64,000 bases of DNA from an uncultured delta proteobacterium (GTDB taxonomy: Bacteria; Myxococcota_A; Polyangia; Haliangiales; Haliangiaceae): contig CAVYYE010000003.1 of the NCBI GenBank assembly GCA_963772655.1, forward strand, positions 2,673,341 through 2,737,340, written 5' to 3'. The notes below the pieces were generated by a model. It saw only the letters and a program-made list of their open reading frames with translations, was not told the DNA's origin and did no database searches. Below are positions 2,830 to 12,002 of the stretch, piece after piece (within the stretch, counting starts at the first letter, position 1; every line of letters starts with the position of its first letter). The position numbers and the translations under genes are program-made.

Positions 2830-3609
2830 TCAGGCGTCGGCGAGCGGCGTGTCTCGAATGTGCGCGATCACGGTGCCGTGGTCGCTGGTACCGAAGTCGC
2901 GGTACGCGGCACACACACAGGTGCCGTCGATCAGCTCGCGACTCGCGATCACGTAGTCGAGCCGCCACCCGATGTTGCGCTGGCGCATGTTCCGCCATGG
3001 CGCCCACCACGTGAACAACCGATCGTTATCGGGGTCGACCTCGCGATGGAGATCGACGAGCCCGTGCGACAGGAACTGCTCGAACAGCGTCCGCTCCTCG
3101 ACGCTCTGCCCGATCATGTCCTTGCGTAGCATCGGGTGGACGTCGATCGGGAGCCGCGCGATGTTGAAGTCGCCGCACAGCACGAGGTACCTGCCGGCCT
3201 CGCGGAGCTCCGCCGCCCACAGCACGAGCTCCTTCCAGAACTCGATCTTCGCCGCGTAGTCCTTGCCGCCGTTCGGTCCGTACACCGTGCCGTAGACGAC
3301 GTTGTCGATCTCGGCGACAGCGATCCGGGTCTCGATGTCGAACCGCGGATGCGTGAACTCCGGCGGCGTGTCGCCGAACGTCTTCACGCGCAGCATCAGC
3401 GCGACGCCCGAGTAACCGGGATGCCCGTGCCAGTGGCAGTGGTAGCCGGGGACCTCGACGATCGGTTCCGGCAGCTGGTGGAGTGCGGCCTTGGTCTCCT
3501 GCAGGCACACCACGTCGGGCTCCTCGCGATCGATCCACGACAGCACCTCCGACGACCGCTTGCGGATGCCGTTGACGTTCCAGGTCCCGAGCTTCACCCT
3601 CGACCACAT
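2830..3609 (-). CDS. xthA: exodeoxyribonuclease III (AP endonuclease, ExoIII/Xth family)
   Basis: The N-terminus is MWSRVKLGTWNVNGIRKR, and the protein carries QETK, the C-terminal SDH motif and WR...DY. It is 259 aa. The ATG is placed at 3609-3607 after trimming the Arg-rich upstream extension of the 465-aa ORF. Confidence 0.9.
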   Translation of the reverse strand: MWSRVKLGTWNVNGIRKRSSEVLSWIDREEPDVVCLQETKAALHQLPEPIVEVPGYHCHWHGHPGYSGVALMLRVKTFGDTPPEFTHPRFDIETRIAVAEIDNVVYGTVYGPNGGKDYAAKIEFWKELVLWAAELREAGRYLVLCGDFNIARLPIDVHPMLRKDMIGQSVEERTLFEQFLSHGLVDLHREVDPDNDRLFTWWAPWRNMRQRNIGWRLDYVIASRELIDGTCVCAAYRDFGTSDHGTVIAHIRDTPLADA

Positions 3610-3690
3610 ACCACAACTATTTCCAGGTGTTCTCATCACAAAACAAACGAACGTTTGCTTTTTTCGAGCGGTCTTGATACCCGTCTTGGC
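3610..3690. promoter_or_regulatory. divergent promoter/operator region between xthA and tetR-family gene; AT-richer island with near-palindrome around AACGTT (aaacaaacgAACGTTtgcttttt)
   Basis: This is the only AT-rich stretch in the first 6 kb. It lies between divergently transcribed genes, and TetR regulators typically bind palindromes in their own upstream region. Confidence 0.35.
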
Positions 3691-4257
3691 GTGGCGAAGC
3701 CATCGACCGACCGCATCCTCAAGAGCTCCGAGCGGGTGCTCGCCGAACGTGGATACAGTGATGTCTCGCTCCGGCAGCTGATGGCTGCGGCTGGCGTGTC
3801 GACGACCGCGTTCTACGCGCGCTTCGCTTCGAAGGAGGCCGTGATGGAGGCGCTGGTGACCGGGCTGTTCGCCGATCTCTACGGGGCCGCACCCGACGTG
3901 CTCGATCGCGCGCGCGATCTCGAGGCCGGCATCGAGATCGGCGTCGATCTGTTGTGCGAACAACTCGGCCCGCGCCGCGCGCTGGTCGGCGTGATCCTGT
4001 CGGAGACCGGCTCGATCCCGGGAGCGATCGAGGCGCGCCGCAACGCGTATCACCTGCTGGCCGCGGTGCTGGCCGACCGGTTGCGCCCGTCGTGTCGAGA
4101 TCGCGTCGATCCGACCGCGCTCGCGTGGGGATTGGTCGGCGCGCTCGAGATCCAGTTCGTGCGCTGGGCGGTATGGCAGGACATCGAGCTTCCCGAGCTC
4201 CATACCCAGCTCGCCACCACCGCGCACGCGATCCTCGACCCGCTGGTGCGCCGATGA
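3691..4257 (+). CDS. TetR/AcrR family transcriptional regulator
   Basis: The GTG start gives MAKPSTDRILKSSERVLAERGYSDVSLRQLMAAAGVSTTAFYARFASKEAV, a typical TetR N-terminal HTH. The TGA overlaps the next ATG (ATGA). Confidence 0.85.
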   Translation: MAKPSTDRILKSSERVLAERGYSDVSLRQLMAAAGVSTTAFYARFASKEAVMEALVTGLFADLYGAAPDVLDRARDLEAGIEIGVDLLCEQLGPRRALVGVILSETGSIPGAIEARRNAYHLLAAVLADRLRPSCRDRVDPTALAWGLVGALEIQFVRWAVWQDIELPELHTQLATTAHAILDPLVRR

Positions 4258-6422
4258 TCGCGGTGCGAGTCGTCACGCTCGCGGCCGTGATCGTGGCGAC
4301 GGCATGCGGCGACAACGATCCCGGCGTCGGATTTCGCATGCTCGCGACCGCCGACATTCCCGCGTACGGCGACGTGCCGTTTCCGACGGACGCCGCGATC
4401 GAGAACGGCCGACTCGCAGTCAAGGGCCTCGATCGGATCGCCGACCTCCGCCTCGATCTGATCGAGACCCAGCTCGGCGCGCTCGACGGCTACGGCGTGC
4501 GACCGCTGGTCGAGATGTTCGCCGAGGCGCCGCTCGACGAGGACTCGCTGCCGACCATCACCACCTCCACCGACGACATCGCCGGCTTGATCGACGTCGA
4601 TCTCGATTCGCCGGAGCGCGGCCGGGTGATCGCGATGGACTGGCACTACGATCCCGATCGCGAGGTGCTCGCCGGATCCCCACGCCCCGGAGAGGTCCTG
4701 CGCGAGGGCACGCGCTACGCCGCGTGGGTCACCACCGACGTTCGTTCCAGCGGTGTACCGCTGCATCCGGTATCGCGCGCCGGCCTCGATCATCCGCGCT
4801 GGGCGTCGACCCTCGCCGCGCTCGACGGCCTCGATCAGCTGGCGGGCCACGAGATCGCCGGGATCGCCGCGTTCACCACGCAGCACGCCTCGGCGCCGCT
4901 GGTCGCGGCCCGTGACGTGATGACCACGCTGCCTCCTCCCGAGCTCGCGTTCCCCGATCCGGACCTCGGCTTCACCGGCGCTCGGCTCGATGCCATCCTC
5001 GGCACCGCCGCGCGCTTCACCGACGGACCGCGCACCGGCCTCGAGCACTGGGGCAACGACAACCCGACCGGCATCGCGCACGATCACGTGGGTGCGATCG
5101 TGACCGGCACGATCACGATCGCGCGGTTTCGCCGCGACGACACCGGCACCGACCTTCCCGATGATGAGACCTTCGAGCTCGATGGCGACGGGGTCCCGCG
5201 CGTGGTCGCGATCGAGCCGATTCCGATCACGTTCATCGTGCCGGCAACTCCATCGCCACCCGCAGGTTACCCGGTCGTGATCTACGGACACGGGCTCGGT
5301 GCCAGCCGCGACCAGCTGTTGTCGTTTGCCGAACCGCTGACCTCGCAGGGCTACGCGCTCGTCGGCATCGACATGGTCGGGCACGGTTCGCGCTTCGACC
5401 CCGGCGATCGCGTCGCCAACATGGCCGGTCAGCTGTCGGCGTTCTCCGGCGACCCCTCACAGCGCGATGGCTTCGGCGACACCACCGGCGCGACCACGCA
5501 GTTCGAGTTCTTCGAGGGATTCCAGAACGTGCTCGCGGTACGCGACGCGATCCGCCAGTCGGCGCTCGACCTGTCGCGCGTGGCGCAGCTCGTCCACGCC
5601 GGGGTCACGCTTCCCGACGGCACGCAGCTCGATCCAGACCGCGTCGCCTATCTCGGGGAATCGTTCGGCACCGTGGTCGGCACGCTGTTCGCCGCGATCG
5701 AACCGACGATCGACCTCTACGTGCTCGACGTCCCGGGTGGCGGCATCCTCGATCGCATCCTCCCCAACAGCCCCGAGATCGGGCAGCTCGCGCTGCCGCT
5801 GATCGAGACCCTCTATCACCCCCACGCACGCCTCGATCGCTGGAATCCGCTGATCGGGCTCGTCCAGGCCACGATCGATGGCGGCGATCCGCTGACCTAC
5901 GCTCCTCACGTGCTCCGCGATCGGTTCGCGATCGACGGCACTCGACTCGGACCGCGCAGCGTGGTCGCGATCGAGGTCGTGGGAGATCAGATCCTGCCGA
6001 ACGTCGCCACCGAGCCGCTCGCTCGCGAGCTCGGCCTCGACGTGCTGGTGCCGAACCTGGTCGTCCCCGACGGGATGCAGGGGATTCCGGCGCCGGCCAC
6101 AGCGAACCTGGACGGTCAGACGGCGGTGCTGGTCCAGTATTCACCGGCGACGCACGGTGCGAACTGGACGGCGGAGCACGGCACGCTGCGGTTCCTTCCG
6201 GGCTTTCCGGCCGATGGTGACGACCCGTTTCCGCGACTTCCCGAGGACATCACGATCGCGAACCCGATCTACGAGACCCTCGACCAGGTGTTCGACATCC
6301 TCGCCACGCACCGGACCGGGGTCCCGCGCGTGATCTCGACGCTGGCGCCCGTGTCCGACTTCGACGGAGATGGTGTCCCGGACGACACCGATCGCAACCC
6401 CTACGATCCGTCGATGCGCTGA
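4254..6422 (+). CDS. secreted lipoprotein alpha/beta-hydrolase (putative lipase/esterase), C-terminal DxDxDG calcium-binding-like tail
   Basis: The lipobox reads MIAVRVVTLAAVIVATAC. The nucleophile elbow is GESFG and IYGHGLG is oxyanion-like. The C-terminus DFDGDGVPDDTDRNPYDP resembles a thrombospondin-type3/Ca-binding motif. The start codon overlaps the tetR stop. Confidence 0.7.
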   Translation: MIAVRVVTLAAVIVATACGDNDPGVGFRMLATADIPAYGDVPFPTDAAIENGRLAVKGLDRIADLRLDLIETQLGALDGYGVRPLVEMFAEAPLDEDSLPTITTSTDDIAGLIDVDLDSPERGRVIAMDWHYDPDREVLAGSPRPGEVLREGTRYAAWVTTDVRSSGVPLHPVSRAGLDHPRWASTLAALDGLDQLAGHEIAGIAAFTTQHASAPLVAARDVMTTLPPPELAFPDPDLGFTGARLDAILGTAARFTDGPRTGLEHWGNDNPTGIAHDHVGAIVTGTITIARFRRDDTGTDLPDDETFELDGDGVPRVVAIEPIPITFIVPATPSPPAGYPVVIYGHGLGASRDQLLSFAEPLTSQGYALVGIDMVGHGSRFDPGDRVANMAGQLSAFSGDPSQRDGFGDTTGATTQFEFFEGFQNVLAVRDAIRQSALDLSRVAQLVHAGVTLPDGTQLDPDRVAYLGESFGTVVGTLFAAIEPTIDLYVLDVPGGGILDRILPNSPEIGQLALPLIETLYHPHARLDRWNPLIGLVQATIDGGDPLTYAPHVLRDRFAIDGTRLGPRSVVAIEVVGDQILPNVATEPLARELGLDVLVPNLVVPDGMQGIPAPATANLDGQTAVLVQYSPATHGANWTAEHGTLRFLPGFPADGDDPFPRLPEDITIANPIYETLDQVFDILATHRTGVPRVISTLAPVSDFDGDGVPDDTDRNPYDPSMR

Positions 6423-6445
6423 ACGAGCTGTGTCATAGTCGCCGG

Positions 6446-8551
6446 ATGGTGGGAACTACCGTGAGGGCGCTCCGCCTCGCCATTGTGATCCTGTTGTCTG
6501 CCGGCACGGCCGTCGCCGGTCCGGTCACGTCGTACGACTGCGCACCCGGCACACCGGTCAAGGGCGTCGGCTGCTCGTGTCCGAAAAGCTACAAGGGCAA
6601 GGCGTACACGCCGAAGCGCGACTCCGCAGATCCCGGTCGTGCGATCTGCGCGGTGCAGAGCTCCCGCCCGTATCGCCCGCGCGGCAACTACACCAAGCTC
6701 GTCGAGCAGGCGAACAACTATGCCGACGCGTTCAACTGCACCAAGGCCGAGGAGACCTATCAGCAAGCGTTGAAGGTCAACTCGCGCGGCCTCGAGGCGC
6801 TGGTCGGCTCGGGCAACTGCATGGTGCGCGAGCGCAAGTGGACCAACGCGCACATGCGCTTCGATCGCGCGCTCGCGATCAATCGCAAGTACGAGCCGGC
6901 GCTGTGGGGCAAGGCCGAGGCCTACCGCCTCGCGTACAAGAAGGACGACGCGATCGCCGCGTATCGCCAGTACCTCGATGCCTATCCCAACTCGTACAAG
7001 GCGAAGCAGGCGCTCGAGAAGCTCACGCAAGGTGCGCCGCAGATCGGAACGCCACCCGTGCGTCCCGGTCGCTACCCGACGCGCACCCAGGACGTCAACG
7101 TTTCGATCTCCGGGTCGAACATCGTGTGCAACGGCGTGGCCGTCAGCGGTACGCCGCGCCTGGCCGACTTCGAGGCGATCTACGGCAAGCCCGATCGCGT
7201 GTGGGACACCAAGGGCGGCGTCAACAAGGTGCATACCTGGGATCGGCTCGGCCTCGTGGTCTACGAGCCGAAGGACGGCCGCGCGATCTCGGCAACGTTC
7301 CCGTTCAAGCCGATGGGCATGGCCTACGACCCGTCGACGATGTTCCGTGGCTCGATCACCGTCGACGGCTACGCGCTCTCGCGTGCCACGAGCCTCGGTA
7401 GCGTGAAGAACCGGCCGGGCGCGACCCAGCCGTATTCGAGCACCTCGGTGGTGATCGCGAAAGGCGACTTCAACGTGTTCGTCACCGGGAAGAGCGGTCC
7501 GCTCGACCTCGTCGAGCTCAGTCTGTGGAAGCGTGGCAACTCCTCCACCAACACCAGCAAGTACAAGAACACGCGCGACGTACGTGTCGTGGTCAACGGC
7601 ACGCGCGTGACGATGAACGGCGTGACGATCAGCGGACGGCCGATGCTCGCCGACATCGAGAAGATCTACGGCAAACCGGATCGCACGTGGGACACCGGCG
7701 CGAGCAACCGCGTTCACACGTGGGACAAGCTCGGCCTCGTCGTCTACGAGCCGCGCGACGGGCGCTGCATCTCGACGACGTTCCCGTACAAGCCGATGGG
7801 AAGCTCGTACGACCCGTCCACCATGTTCGGTGGCTCGATCATCGTCGACGGTCGATCGGTGACGAAGTTTTTGACGATCCCGTCGATCAAGTCGCGACCG
7901 GGAGCGACGCAGCCGTACGGCAAGAACTCGATCGTGTTCGACAAGGGCGATATCCACGTGTTCACGATCTCGAAGAAGGGCGGCCCGATCGACCTCGTCG
8001 AGATCAGCTACTGGCAACGCGACAAACGCGGCACCTCACTCGGTGGCAACAACACCACGACCTCGAGCGGTGGTCGCGTGGCGAACGCGAAGGACGTGCG
8101 CGTCGAAGTCGTCGGTACCACGGTCAAGCTGCAGGGCGTCGCGATCAGCGGCAAGCCCCGCGTGTCCGATATCACCGCGATCTACGGCAAGCCCGATCGC
8201 GTGTGGGACAAGAAGGGTTCTCCCAACCGCATCCACACCTGGGACAACCTCGGCTTCGTCGTCTACGAGCCGCACGATGGTCGGGCGATCTCGTTGACCA
8301 TGCCGTTCAAGCCGATGAACAACACGTTCTCTCCGAGGACGCTGTTCAAGGGACGGGTCTCGCTCGACCGCCGCGGGTTCTACAACTTCAACACCATCGG
8401 CACGATCAAGCGACGCAAGGGCGCGACCCAGCCGTACGGCGCGACCTCCGTCGTGTTCGATCTCGGCGACGTCCACGTGTTCACGACCGCTTCCAAGTCG
8501 ACCTCCTCGACGATCGATCTCGTCGAGGTCAGCTTCTGGCAGCACAAGTAG
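6446..8551 (+). CDS. secreted protein: signal peptide + TPR-like helical N-domain + three tandem ~160-aa repeats of an uncharacterised module
   Basis: The signal peptide is MVGTTVRALRLAIVILLSAGTAVAG. The N-terminal roughly 200 aa are helical and TPR-like (AEAYRLAYKKDDAIAAYRQYLDAYP). Three paralogous repeats then each contain IYGKPDR-WD...HTWD-LGLVVYEP-DGR-IS-TFP-KPMG...PGATQPY...V-G/F. Confidence 0.75.
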   Translation: MVGTTVRALRLAIVILLSAGTAVAGPVTSYDCAPGTPVKGVGCSCPKSYKGKAYTPKRDSADPGRAICAVQSSRPYRPRGNYTKLVEQANNYADAFNCTKAEETYQQALKVNSRGLEALVGSGNCMVRERKWTNAHMRFDRALAINRKYEPALWGKAEAYRLAYKKDDAIAAYRQYLDAYPNSYKAKQALEKLTQGAPQIGTPPVRPGRYPTRTQDVNVSISGSNIVCNGVAVSGTPRLADFEAIYGKPDRVWDTKGGVNKVHTWDRLGLVVYEPKDGRAISATFPFKPMGMAYDPSTMFRGSITVDGYALSRATSLGSVKNRPGATQPYSSTSVVIAKGDFNVFVTGKSGPLDLVELSLWKRGNSSTNTSKYKNTRDVRVVVNGTRVTMNGVTISGRPMLADIEKIYGKPDRTWDTGASNRVHTWDKLGLVVYEPRDGRCISTTFPYKPMGSSYDPSTMFGGSIIVDGRSVTKFLTIPSIKSRPGATQPYGKNSIVFDKGDIHVFTISKKGGPIDLVEISYWQRDKRGTSLGGNNTTTSSGGRVANAKDVRVEVVGTTVKLQGVAISGKPRVSDITAIYGKPDRVWDKKGSPNRIHTWDNLGFVVYEPHDGRAISLTMPFKPMNNTFSPRTLFKGRVSLDRRGFYNFNTIGTIKRRKGATQPYGATSVVFDLGDVHVFTTASKSTSSTIDLVEVSFWQHK
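7094..8548 (+). repeat. three in-frame tandem coding repeats (~477-507 bp each: 7094-7570, 7571-8077, 8078-8548)
   Basis: Protein-level self-similarity of about 45-55% identity between the three units. Each unit itself looks like two related half-modules. Confidence 0.7.
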
Positions 8552-8559
8552 GACGCGCG

Positions 8560-9294
8560 CTACTCGTCGTCGTTGTCGCTCGCGATCTCGCCGGTCACGG
8601 ACTCGAGCTCCGTCCCGGCCTCTTCCATCCCCGCTCCGATCAGCGCGCGACCGAGGTCCTCGAGGCTGACCAGCTCGGCGATCGGTGCCGTGGCACGCGG
8701 CTTCGCGACGCCGGTGTACGCGTGCGCGAGCCCGAACGCGACCACCTCGCCGCTGCGTCGTCCGAGCGCCGGCTCCGGCGGCAACCAGGCGAACGCGATC
8801 GCACCGACGATCGGTGCCGACGCGTGTGCGGGATGTAGCGGACTCGCGAGGTAGAGGATCAGGTCGCTCATGCCGCCGGCATCGTCGGCGTCGATGTCGA
8901 CCGGGATCAGCGACCGCTCGAAACCGGTGCCGCTCGCCTCGACCGTGACGATCGCCGAGGTCGCACCGTGAACGTTGACGCTGGCGTTGACCGCTCCGAT
9001 CGAGAGCGGCTGGAGATCGTGATCGGCCGGGATCTCGACCTCGATGTCGATCAGCCCGACGCCGGCGTAGCGACCGATCGTCCAGGTGCCGGTCGCGATC
9101 CGTGCCGAGCCATCGAGCTTGGTCGCGATCGCGAGCTCGGCCTGCGAGTGCGCGCGGAGCAGCTCCGCACCGGTCACCCCGATGATGCGCGGGCCGTTGG
9201 CGACCAGCGTGACCGGCCCGATGAACTGCGGGGTGTCACCGAGGGCGATCAGCGGCGCAACGGAACGTAGCTCCGGTGCGTTCGGGTCGCGCAT
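8560..9294 (-). CDS. hypothetical protein (beta-rich, Gly-rich; possibly AIM24/DUF124-like)
   Basis: The C-terminal roughly 240 aa of the 328-aa ORF are non-Arg-biased. The start is placed at the ATG at 9294-9292, leaving about 95 bp of intergenic space to the divergent acyltransferase. The domain assignment is uncertain. Confidence 0.45.
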   Translation of the reverse strand: MRDPNAPELRSVAPLIALGDTPQFIGPVTLVANGPRIIGVTGAELLRAHSQAELAIATKLDGSARIATGTWTIGRYAGVGLIDIEVEIPADHDLQPLSIGAVNASVNVHGATSAIVTVEASGTGFERSLIPVDIDADDAGGMSDLILYLASPLHPAHASAPIVGAIAFAWLPPEPALGRRSGEVVAFGLAHAYTGVAKPRATAPIAELVSLEDLGRALIGAGMEEAGTELESVTGEIASDNDDE

Positions 9295-9388
9295 CACGCG
9301 CCCACACTCGCACATCGCAATCCGGTCCAGCAAGCCGCCGGGGGGGCACGATTGGGGTACGACATCGGCTCTGTGGCACCCTAGTGTC

Positions 9389-10732
9389 ATGGAGCACGCA
9401 GAGGGGCACGTGTCATCGGCCATCCCGGGCCGCTCGGAAGGTCGCTCGCTGGATGTTCGCGGCGTGCTGGTGTCGACGTTCCGCCGGCTGATGCGGTTGT
9501 ACTTCCGCGACATCGAGCGCGTCGGCGAGCCTCCCGGTGCCGACACCCGCGGCCGCGTCGTGGTGTCAAATCACACCAACGCGTTGATCGATCCGATCCT
9601 CGTGCTCACCGATGTCACCTGCGAGATCTCGCCGGTCGCCAAGTCGACGCTGTGGAACATCCCCGGTCTCCGGTGGCTGCTCGACCGCGCGGGTGCCGTT
9701 CCGATCGTGCGGCGAAAGGACACCCCGAACAAGGACGTGTCCTCGAACGCGACGATGTTCGAGAAGATCGCCACGCACCTGTCGGGTGGCGGAAACATCC
9801 TGATCTTTCCCGAGGGCACGAGTCACAGCGAGCCCCGTCTCGCTCCGCTACGAACCGGCGCCGCGCGGATGTTGCTCGCCGCCGAGAAGGCCGGTGGCAC
9901 GCCGCCCACGTTTCAGGCCGCGGCGCTCGAGTTCGATGCGCGCGAGGACTTCCGATCGCGATGCCTCGTGCTGTGGGGGCCGGTGCGGAGGTTCGCCGAC
10001 GTGCCCGGAGACGACGACGAGATCCGCATCCGCAACGCGACCGAGATCATGAACGCCGATCTCCGCGAGCTCCTCGTCGAGGGCGACACGCACGAGGAGC
10101 GCCTGCGGATCGCGCGCGTCGCCGAGCTGATCGCCAACGACGAGGGCGATCGTTCCCTCGGAACGTGGAACGGCATCGGCCGCCAGGTCGAGCTCGCGAA
10201 CCGCACGCTGCGCGATACCGCTCCGGACCTCCTCCGCCGGGTCGCCGACCAGGTCGACGCGTACTACGCCGAGCTCGAGCGACTCGGGCTCGACGACGTG
10301 CGGATCGTGGCGGGTCGGATCGGCTCGCGTCCCCCGCAGCCGGAGGCCCCGCGTGGATGGCGCCGGGCACTCCTCGCACCGCTCGCGGCGTCCGGCGTCG
10401 CGCTGTACGCGATCCCGTACTTCATCCCGCGCATGATCGCGCGCTCGCAGGATCCCGATGCCGTGAGCACGTTCAAGCTCGGTTCGGCCCTGCTCGTGTA
10501 TCCGCTGTGGGCGGCGGGACTGGTCACCGGGTCGCTCGTGCTGCTCCCCCCGCCGCTCTCGGTGGTGGCGGCCGCGGTCGCGATCGCGTCGCCGTTCGCC
10601 GCCTTGAGCTGGCTCGATCGCTGGTACGAACACTCGTCCGAGCCCACGCCCGACGAGCTCGCACAGCTCGCGCGGATGCGGATCGCCGCACGCACCGCGA
10701 TCGACGAGGCGCGTAGCCGGCTACCCAGCTGA
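9389..10732 (+). CDS. PlsC/GPAT-family acyltransferase (glycerol-3-phosphate / lysophospholipid acyltransferase-like) with C-terminal TM segments
   Basis: The catalytic block reads VVVSNHTNALIDP (H-x-D). Motif III is ILIFPEGTSH. There are two C-terminal hydrophobic helices. The start is at the ATG MEHAEGH. Confidence 0.8.
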   Translation: MEHAEGHVSSAIPGRSEGRSLDVRGVLVSTFRRLMRLYFRDIERVGEPPGADTRGRVVVSNHTNALIDPILVLTDVTCEISPVAKSTLWNIPGLRWLLDRAGAVPIVRRKDTPNKDVSSNATMFEKIATHLSGGGNILIFPEGTSHSEPRLAPLRTGAARMLLAAEKAGGTPPTFQAAALEFDAREDFRSRCLVLWGPVRRFADVPGDDDEIRIRNATEIMNADLRELLVEGDTHEERLRIARVAELIANDEGDRSLGTWNGIGRQVELANRTLRDTAPDLLRRVADQVDAYYAELERLGLDDVRIVAGRIGSRPPQPEAPRGWRRALLAPLAASGVALYAIPYFIPRMIARSQDPDAVSTFKLGSALLVYPLWAAGLVTGSLVLLPPPLSVVAAAVAIASPFAALSWLDRWYEHSSEPTPDELAQLARMRIAARTAIDEARSRLPS

Positions 10733-12002
10733 GCGGCGCGGGTGGAACACCACCCACAAGAGGAGCGAGATCGCTCCACTCGCGAGCTCGACCCACGACG
10801 ACGTCGCGCTGAGGTTGAACGTCCGGTACATCCACTCCTGCGACGACGGGTTGAACCCCGCGATCGACACCGCCACCATGCCGATACCGCTCGCCACCAC
10901 GAACAGGTGCTCGAGCTCGAACCGCGCGAACGCGAATCCGAGCAGTCCGACGCTGAGGTTGAGCGCGAGCGCATGTGCCTGGTTGGTGTGAACGAACCCG
11001 AGGTCCTCGGTGAACAGTCCGATCAGACCGAGCAACACCAGCCCGGCGCAGACCAGCCACGACCATCCGGCGAGGATCGCACCGCGATAGTGCGCGCTGC
11101 GACGCGCCGGCACCGGCTCCGGTAGCGATGGCGGCTTGGCGGTCTCGGGGCTCGGTGGCCGCTCGAGGAGCGCTCGCACCGCCGCGGTGACCTCGTCGGG
11201 CCTGTGTTCGGCGATGAAGTGCATGCCGTGCGAGATCGTGGTGCGCGTGGCATCCGGGATGGTCGCCACCAACTCGTCGGCGATGTCGTTCGGGCACCAC
11301 GGATCGGCGTCGCCCCAGATCACCGCGGTGGGTATGTCGAGCGTGGCGAGTGCGGCGAGTTGCTCGCGTCGCGGGCGTAACGAATAGCCGGCGAAGAACC
11401 GTGCGAACCACCGCCGGTTTCGAACGCTCGCCCATCCACCCGACGTAGCCATCGACCTGCTCCGCGTCGAAACATCCCGCCTGCTGGTACGGCTCGAGCC
11501 CGAGGCGATGGATGTTCTCGAGCGGCAACCACGCCAGCAGCCACGGCGCGACCCGCGCGGTCGCCGACACCAGCCACGTCATCCAGAACCCGGCACGGGT
11601 GAACGTCTCGTGCGCGCGGCTGTTGAGGATGCCGAACCGCGCGACCCGTTCGGGGTGCGCGAGCACGAAGCCGAGCGCGATGTAGCCTCCGTAATCGTGC
11701 GCGATCAGGTTGCAGCGCTTCACGCCGAGCGCGTCGAGTAGCCGGCCGAGCCGCTCGACCTCGCCCTCGTAGCGCGACACCGCCCCCACCACGCGCTGCG
11801 ATTCGCCCCAGCCGAACCAATCGATCGCGATCACGCGATGGGTCTTCGCGAGCTCCGGGATCTGGTGGCGCCACATCACGTGGCTCTCCGGATATCCGTG
11901 CACCAGCACCACCACCTCGCCCTCTCCGGCCTCGACGTAGGCGACGCTCGCGCCATCGACCTCGACGCGCTGTAGCGAGAGTGCTGACACCGCGGAGACC
12001 AT
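10721..12002 (-). pseudogene. alpha/beta-hydrolase (haloalkane-dehalogenase/epoxide-hydrolase-like fold) fused to C-terminal 4-TM domain; reading frame broken by an apparent +1 frameshift near 11400-11455
   Basis: The N-terminal frame carries HGYPESHVMWRHQ and the nucleophile AHDYGG. The C-terminal catalytic His region TLDIPTAVIWGDADPW...ISHGMHF and the TM tail lie in a frame shifted by +1. Both halves are clearly coding. This is either a sequencing error or a genuine pseudogene. Confidence 0.6.

Follow-up and report, generated by a model that had tools for sequence, protein, structure and literature searches.

What is the module that occurs three times in the 701-residue secreted protein encoded at positions 6446 to 8551 (+ strand) of this stretch of DNA, and what might a bacterium do with three such modules in a row? 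The window analysed is the whole stretch, 64,000 nucleotides from an uncultured delta proteobacterium, and positions given for it are its own. The original prediction, made from the letters of the sequence, held that the module could not be assigned to a named domain. That was not borne out: a Pfam search (hmmscan) matched family PF24880 (DUF7738) to three stretches of the protein, scoring 139.7 bits (E 5.4e-41) where the gathering cut-off is 24.6, and one module alone reached 50.5 bits. By its sequence, the protein belongs to PF24880. The module is not a new kind of domain, and because DUF7738 is catalogued yet not well characterised, the earlier claim of novelty is weakened rather than abolished. 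Neither "DUF7738" nor "PF24880" occurs in any paper of the searchable literature, NCBIfam holds no model for the module, and public sources label its relatives only as "hypothetical protein". The Pfam model itself, with 103 positions, takes in the N-terminal half of the module (N-half) but, of the C-terminal half (C-half), only the first hairpin, which is to say the N-terminal two thirds of a conserved folding unit that is longer, at about 150 residues.

The three modules occupy residues 214-364 (7085-7537, class m1), 376-527 (7571-8026, class m2) and 548-701 (8087-8548, class m3), all on the + strand. Aligned over their whole length, they show 51-61% pairwise identity (BLASTP E 1e-58 to 1e-70), which confirms the tandem paralogues first recognised, and the consensus string first read from them agrees with the invariant columns of the alignment. 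The motif IYGKPDR recurs at residues 245, 407 and 579, with spacings of 162 and 172 residues; this period of approximately 160-170 residues comprises the folded unit of about 150 residues and a linker rich in Ser, Thr, Asn and Gly. At the DNA level the modules are only 67-72% identical, so that the copies must be old, and the same figure rules out chance, an assembly artefact or a recent duplication as the source of the triplication. Across related loci m1, m2 and m3 are positionally orthologous module classes, and the triplication is therefore older than the divergence of these organisms. The order m1-m2-m3 is found also among the set of orthologues (loci L001, L002, L003, L004, L011 and L012, proteins P0007 and P0008), within which L003 carries m1-m2, P0008 and P0007 m1-m3, L012 m1-m2-m2 and L002 m1-m1-m3. 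This variation in number and order, as read from the sequences, shows repeated gain and loss of modules.

Elsewhere the module is usually found alone. DUF7738 is a small family: an exhaustive profile search over 1.84 billion cluster representatives returned 276 proteins when E was allowed up to 1e-3 and 39 when the limit was 1e-10, and a word-indexed search for homologues of module 2 brought up 3 proteins only. Single-copy versions are the rule, since 139 of the 152 best proteins carry one module; two are present in 9 and three in 4, and the arrangement seen here, three modules behind a tetratricopeptide repeat (TPR) domain, is rare. The majority of these 152 relatives are single-module proteins of 150-200 residues whose N-terminus carries a hydrophobic or lipobox-like segment. 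The profile built here recovers essentially the same proteins as PF24880, which matches 43 of 44 multidomain relatives; in this set the fusions are to Sel1 repeats (9), TPR (2), a DnaJ domain (2) and GYF_2 (1), the TPR fusion occurring in this clade and in protein P0027. The organisms, high-GC and uncultured, are known only from metagenome bins that bear the label Deltaproteobacteria or Proteobacteria. We note also that the same group of metagenome-assembled genomes (MAGs) has a paralogous lineage of lipoproteins in which one DUF7738 module is followed by Cys-rich Sel1 repeats (L005, L006, L007, L013 and L014; P0002, P0009, P0010 and P0017), and that P0003 and P0013 represent a lineage whose C-terminal domain, about 100 residues long, is of another kind and has no Pfam match.

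Over 169 module instances, which share about 20% overall identity, G34 and G55 are invariant, P82, G88, D52 (96%) and R38 (94%) are at least 94% conserved, and F86, Y59, N46 (86%) and W51 are strongly conserved. All of the conserved residues are confined to the N-half and the junction of the two halves; the C-half is variable, and its RPGATQPYG loop is invariant in this clade only. The near-invariance of R38, D52 and N46 could be taken to mean that the module is an enzyme, with conserved Arg, Asp, Asn, His, Trp and Tyr residues as its active site. On the other hand neither His49 nor Glu60 is conserved throughout the family, and no catalytic member is known of the fold class among the structural matches described below. 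We consider catalysis extremely improbable. What is invariant across the family is mainly Gly, Pro and aromatic residues together with one Arg/Asp pair on neighbouring strands, and this argues for a non-catalytic character.

The suggestion that each module consists of two similar halves has fared well. With an alignment of 36 modules, hhalign matched the N-half to the C-half over 66 columns (probability 93.9%, E 1.6e-7, score 36.2), the best score in 100 column shuffles being 15.7 and that of the reversed control 12.4, and in an AlphaFold2 model of module 2 (predicted local distance difference test score, pLDDT, 89.6; predicted template-modelling score, pTM, 0.86) the succession of strands, helix and beta-meander occurs twice. 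All three modules show the same pattern in a model of the full-length protein, whose scores (pLDDT 66.5, pTM 0.32) are too low for inter-domain packing to be read from it; the linkers between modules are predicted to be disordered, and this, with the pTM of 0.32, is consistent with an arrangement as beads on a string. A Foldseek search with the module model ranked structures of the yfeY-like group at the top. As modelled, the module has the fold of the yfeY-like/BLIP-like group, common in bacterial envelopes, with a helix packed on an antiparallel sheet and duplicated in tandem, and is a two-lobed alpha/beta unit of about 150 residues that arose by ancient duplication of a BamE/BLIP-type half. 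For the tentative guess of such a fold, prompted at the outset by residue spacing, the predicted structure thus provides good support.

Two kinds of structural relative may be distinguished here. In the yfeY-like group stand Escherichia coli YfeY (DUF1131; 2qzb), Bacillus subtilis YjgB (DUF4309; 4ygt) and CAP_assoc_N (4ifa and 4h0a), extracytoplasmic bacterial proteins like the one described here, all related by curators to BLIP-like domains, but only 4-12% identical to the module. The ECOD curation that defines this group reports that HHpred links its members to BLIP domains; the curators merged it into the BLIP-like group, in which many members are enzyme inhibitors, and the Pfam clan cited for the fold is PepSY, CL0320 (PMC11836899). 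The second kind comprises BLIP (1jtg_B), BLP (3gmx) and BamE/SmpA_OmlA (7txx and 8adg_E), in which the helix-on-sheet unit corresponds to one half of a module. BLIP, too, consists of two such units in tandem, and the module shares the LG.P motif after the helix that is typical of the BLIP/BamE unit; unlike BLIP, BLP and BamE, the halves of the module carry an additional N-terminal beta-hairpin. The modules have no Pfam match at E up to 1 to DUF1131, DUF4309, CAP_assoc_N, BLIP (PF07467) or SmpA_OmlA (PF04335), and by this measure belong to neither the BLIP nor the BamE/SmpA_OmlA family.

The remainder of the protein bears on where it acts. The reading frame runs exactly from the ATG at 6446 to a stop codon at 8549-8551, and the gene is complete, as indicated by its listing as an open reading frame (ORF), a GC content at third codon positions (GC3) of 0.85, the codon bias of a genuine gene in DNA of 67% GC, the three PF24880 matches and the full-length homologues P0004 (715 residues, E 1.4e-192), P0006 and P0008. 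Numerous spurious ORFs overlap it in this GC-rich DNA, and the exact protein is absent from the public gene index. Over 6500-8500 the GC content is 0.63-0.66, as compared to 0.68-0.70 in the flanks, with an AT skew of +0.11 to +0.13, values that fit a composition rich in Lys, Thr and Asn and are in themselves no sign of foreign origin. Residues 1-24 (6446-6517, + strand) read as a Sec-type signal peptide, as had been proposed, with two Arg, an LAIVILLSAGT core and a predicted cleavage site after A-V-A, ahead of G25; a hydrophobic segment at this position is conserved in the homologues. The signal region has no lipobox Cys, and the protein is predicted to be exported and non-lipidated.

Between the signal peptide and the modules lie two further elements. 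A short Cys-rich segment of the disulfide type (6521-6655, + strand) contains C32, C43, C45 and C68, which are invariant columns in an alignment of five full-length homologues; it is modelled with low confidence in the full-length structure, and is kept in P0005, a homologue without the TPR domain. The helical domain, residues 80-194 approximately (6683-7027, + strand), had been called TPR-like and is a true TPR domain of about three repeats, recognisable by its sequence: in a phmmer search of the PDB, about 103 residues (approximately 90-192) match consensus TPR proteins with E from 5e-17 to 6e-9. In Pfam, TPR_16 reaches 25.4 bits, under its cut-off of 32.7, and TPR_6 is also sub-threshold; in the full-length model the region forms helical hairpins, at low confidence.

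Taken together, these features lead us to propose, in the knowledge that the proposal is about evenly poised between right and wrong, that the protein is an extracytoplasmic, multivalent, non-catalytic binding scaffold for protein partners. Its location, in the periplasm or outside the cell, is indicated by the signal peptide and by the N-terminal hydrophobic or lipobox-like segments of most relatives. That the partners would be proteins, and hydrolases in particular, is indicated by the recurrence of Sel1 and TPR fusions and by the inhibitory or immunity roles of the fold relatives BLIP and TsiN. A scaffold character is supported by this repeated fusion to protein-interaction repeats, by the beads-on-a-string arrangement and by the positional orthology of m1, m2 and m3. 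The TPR repeats and the three modules may each hold a protein, with a hydrolase that is secreted or sits in the envelope as the most plausible choice, and binding would be steric, as with BLIP on beta-lactamase and TsiN on the active site of a nuclease. The conserved N-half (LGKPDR...N.IHTWD.LG..YE) would form the structural core, in which R38 and D52, on neighbouring strands, probably make a salt bridge, and specificity would be supplied by the variable C-half with its clade-specific RPGATQPYG loop. A lipoprotein lipase encoded next to the gene would be the first candidate partner, though not an obligatory one. Comparable proteins are NlpI and LbcA, TPR/Sel1 envelope adaptors in which an exported helical-repeat domain holds envelope hydrolases, and fusion of DUF7738 to TPR or Sel1 repeats is recurrent; these adaptors are lipoproteins and lack DUF7738 modules.

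A number of observations weigh against this proposal. Its functional part is drawn by analogy from the fold, and the model of module 2 on which the fold depends was built from an alignment of five sequences only. The Foldseek matches are marginal, with E-values of 2e-3 and worse and template-modelling (TM) scores of about 0.46-0.52. A profile search of PDB sequences with the module family gave only chance matches to protein G, at E of at least 0.16, and hhalign comparison of the family profile with the single E. coli YfeY sequence gave a probability of 0.1%, which is no signal; superfamily membership is thus argued from fold, since no sequence-level homology to solved relatives was detected. 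The yfeY-like families are themselves uncharacterised and offer no mechanism, and characterised relatives are few; a function for YfeY is reported in no paper among those that mention it. The neighbourhood is likewise of little help. In the related locus L011 an xthA gene lies immediately upstream and the same acyltransferase gene downstream, with neither the TetR regulator gene (tetR) nor the lipase gene that adjoin the gene in the window, and no neighbouring partner recurs among seven distant family members and the Sel1-fused paralogues. The neighbours in these loci include DUF1501, an extracytoplasmic function (ECF) sigma factor, a ddl/PASTA/rhodanese group, a TonB receptor, a VIT-VWA protein and biotin synthase.

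Some of the same evidence could be read in a different way, with the modules binding a phospholipid head group, peptidoglycan or polysaccharide, and the TPR domain docking the protein to a machine, so that it would be a structural or assembly factor of the envelope. BamE, which binds phosphatidylglycerol, and the extracellular domain of TagH, which sits at the cell wall, provide the parallels; the fold is similar to those of BamE, OsmE and the C-terminal domain of TagH, and the polar and aromatic cluster R38, N46, W51, D52 and Y59 is kept over the 169 modules, but these residues sit where a structural salt bridge and turns are expected. One Bacteroidota member follows ddl, a PASTA-domain gene and a rhodanese gene. 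The TPR region also has weak NCBIfam matches to the envelope-machine proteins PrsT, BcsC, PilW and LapB, but these are generic and all far under cut-off, and no envelope-biogenesis genes lie near the DUF7738 gene within the window. We judge a role of this kind to be unlikely, though deserving of attention.

The likeness to TsiN raises the further thought that the protein confers immunity to a polymorphic toxin or a type VI effector, its three modules neutralising three toxins. TsiN sterically blocks the active site of its nuclease (PMC12574953). As the immunity protein of TseN, a T6SS (type VI secretion system) nuclease, it is cytoplasmic and encoded beside its toxin, and its structure (9j9w_A) is only 6% identical in sequence to the module. 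The protein described here, in contrast, has a signal peptide, where TsiN acts on a cytoplasmic nuclease, and no toxin, Rhs, VgrG/PAAR or T6SS gene adjoins its gene in the window or in the related loci sampled; the family consists mostly of free-standing secreted proteins in housekeeping-type neighbourhoods. Such a role is accordingly very improbable.

The genes upstream bear most directly on the choice of a partner for the proposed scaffold. The gene is preceded on the same strand by one for a 722-residue lipoprotein lipase/phospholipase (4254-6422, +) with a GESFG serine motif, a lipoprotein signal, MIAVRVVTLAAVIVATAC (…VATAC), an Abhydrolase_1 match (E 1.6e-5) and a partial match to VolA/Pla-1; against NCBIfam TIGR03502 it scores 82.8 bits over the catalytic core only, well short of the cut-off of 383.9. 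From these matches we regard it as a lipase-like lipoprotein of the alpha/beta-hydrolase class, and at most a distant relative of VolA/Pla-1. It has no PDB relative by sequence, and its C-terminal stretch DFDGDGVPDDTDRNPYDP resembles the thrombospondin type 3 calcium-binding motif. Ahead of it is a gene for a TetR-family regulator (3691-4257, +; Pfam TetR_N E 4.8e-13), whose stop codon overlaps the lipase start (ATGA, 4254-4257) in a manner that suggests translational coupling of the two. An xthA-like exonuclease gene lies upstream of tetR in divergent orientation (- strand), and in the divergent region of about 80 nucleotides between them is a near-perfect palindrome, AAACAAACG-AA-CGTTTGCTTT (3640-3664), a likely, if putative, TetR operator.

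Whether tetR, lipase and repeat-protein genes form an operon, as initially supposed, could be upheld only in part. In its favour, the DUF7738 gene begins only 23 nucleotides after the lipase stop codon, with no terminator in the gap, and the order tetR-lipase-repeat recurs in L003, in L012 and in L001, which is from a MAG that carries the label Proteobacteria bacterium. A sigma-70 consensus scan of 3400-9000 found no promoter; terminator-like matches fall inside coding sequence and are not credible. A related-locus search with one module alignment gave only 3 genome loci and 4 metagenome loci, and the linkage is present in four of the five informative syntenic loci, L011 being the one in which it is missing. 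Since L001, L003 and L012 are syntenic relatives, they do not constitute independent evidence for an operon, and as the flanking genes are shared, the conserved order may be no more than inherited synteny. L011, with its orthologue of three modules (67-71% identical) and neither tetR nor lipase, is the informative case, in which the link to the lipase is seen not to be obligatory. At the site of the missing genes, in the intergenic region between xthA and the DUF7738 gene (2653-2691 of L011), lies a tandem repeat, (GACATCGGC)x4.

The gene also appears to have a leader of its own. The sequence cTGtCATAGTcgccgg (6427-6445, +), directly before the ATG, is kept in the window and in L001 (7981-8000), L003 (3043-3062), L011 (2720-2739) and L012 (7331-7350), and is thus present in L011 too, where no lipase precedes. 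Conservation extends over about 15 nucleotides ahead of the ATG, with the motif TG-n-CATAGT, for which CATTAT and GATAGT occur as variants, then 6-7 nucleotides and the ATG, and there is no Shine-Dalgarno sequence. We infer from this pattern an extended -10 promoter geometry, with transcription starting at or beside the ATG and giving a leaderless or near-leaderless mRNA. Because this promoter-like leader is conserved even where the upstream lipase is absent, it suggests that the DUF7738 gene can be transcribed independently.

It is against this background that a more specific relationship has to be weighed, in which the protein would bind the neighbouring VolA/Pla-1-like lipase, expressed from one transcript with it, as its dedicated partner, either keeping the enzyme inactive until export, a form of self-protection comparable to immunity proteins for secreted lipases, or positioning and stabilising it at the cell surface. 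The two genes share a strand, a short gap and the lack of any terminator-like site between them; their order is kept in the window, L001, L003 and L012 despite divergence of the proteins to 49-68% identity, and the fold relatives of the module include enzyme inhibitors and immunity proteins. But the lipase-positive loci are all syntenic relatives, in which inherited gene order may explain the conservation, and the leader suggests separate transcription; L002 (P0005) has no preceding lipase within the 575 nucleotides available, other DUF7738 proteins are never beside lipases in the loci sampled, and L011, with the same flanks, shows that the lipase is not an obligatory partner. We therefore consider a dedicated partnership distinctly unlikely. 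A lipase-specific foldase, tried as a separate candidate, is ruled out: there is no such Pfam match, and the modules are not all-helical.

Downstream, two features of the minus strand may be recorded. The convergent ORF at 8560-9546 (-), listed with 328 residues and a GC3 of 0.86, has no Pfam match; its start is uncertain, and it overlaps a + strand ORF. Further on, at 10721-12002 (-), an alpha/beta-hydrolase gene is split over two frames, its N-terminal part (Abhydrolase_1 positions 2-121) falling in 11320-12002 and its C-terminal part (positions 180-241) in 10721-11452, an arrangement that points to a frameshift, pseudogene or sequencing error.

For the family, what is new relative to the database entry is the assignment of a fold to DUF7738, its internal duplication, a corrected length of about 150 residues for its folding unit, and an architecture in which a TPR domain is joined to three modules that are orthologous from locus to locus. 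The architectures of the family are documented as well, and are mainly single secreted modules, with recurrent fusion to repeats of the Sel1 or TPR type. In practical terms the result is of modest value, as the family is rare, its hosts are uncultured and the data do not lead directly to a function. A bolder, and in our estimation quite improbable, extension of the scaffold proposal would make DUF7738 proteins unrecognised envelope enzyme inhibitors of the BLIP/TsiN type, and the present one a TPR-tethered trivalent inhibitor that shields its producer from its own surface phospholipase or other secreted hydrolases, by insertion of the RPGATQPYG loop into the target active site; if true, inhibition of the lipase would represent a new class of envelope lipase regulators. 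From the standpoint of the fold, DUF7738 joins DUF1131, DUF4309 and CAP_assoc_N as an orphan envelope family, and the function of any one of these would inform the rest.

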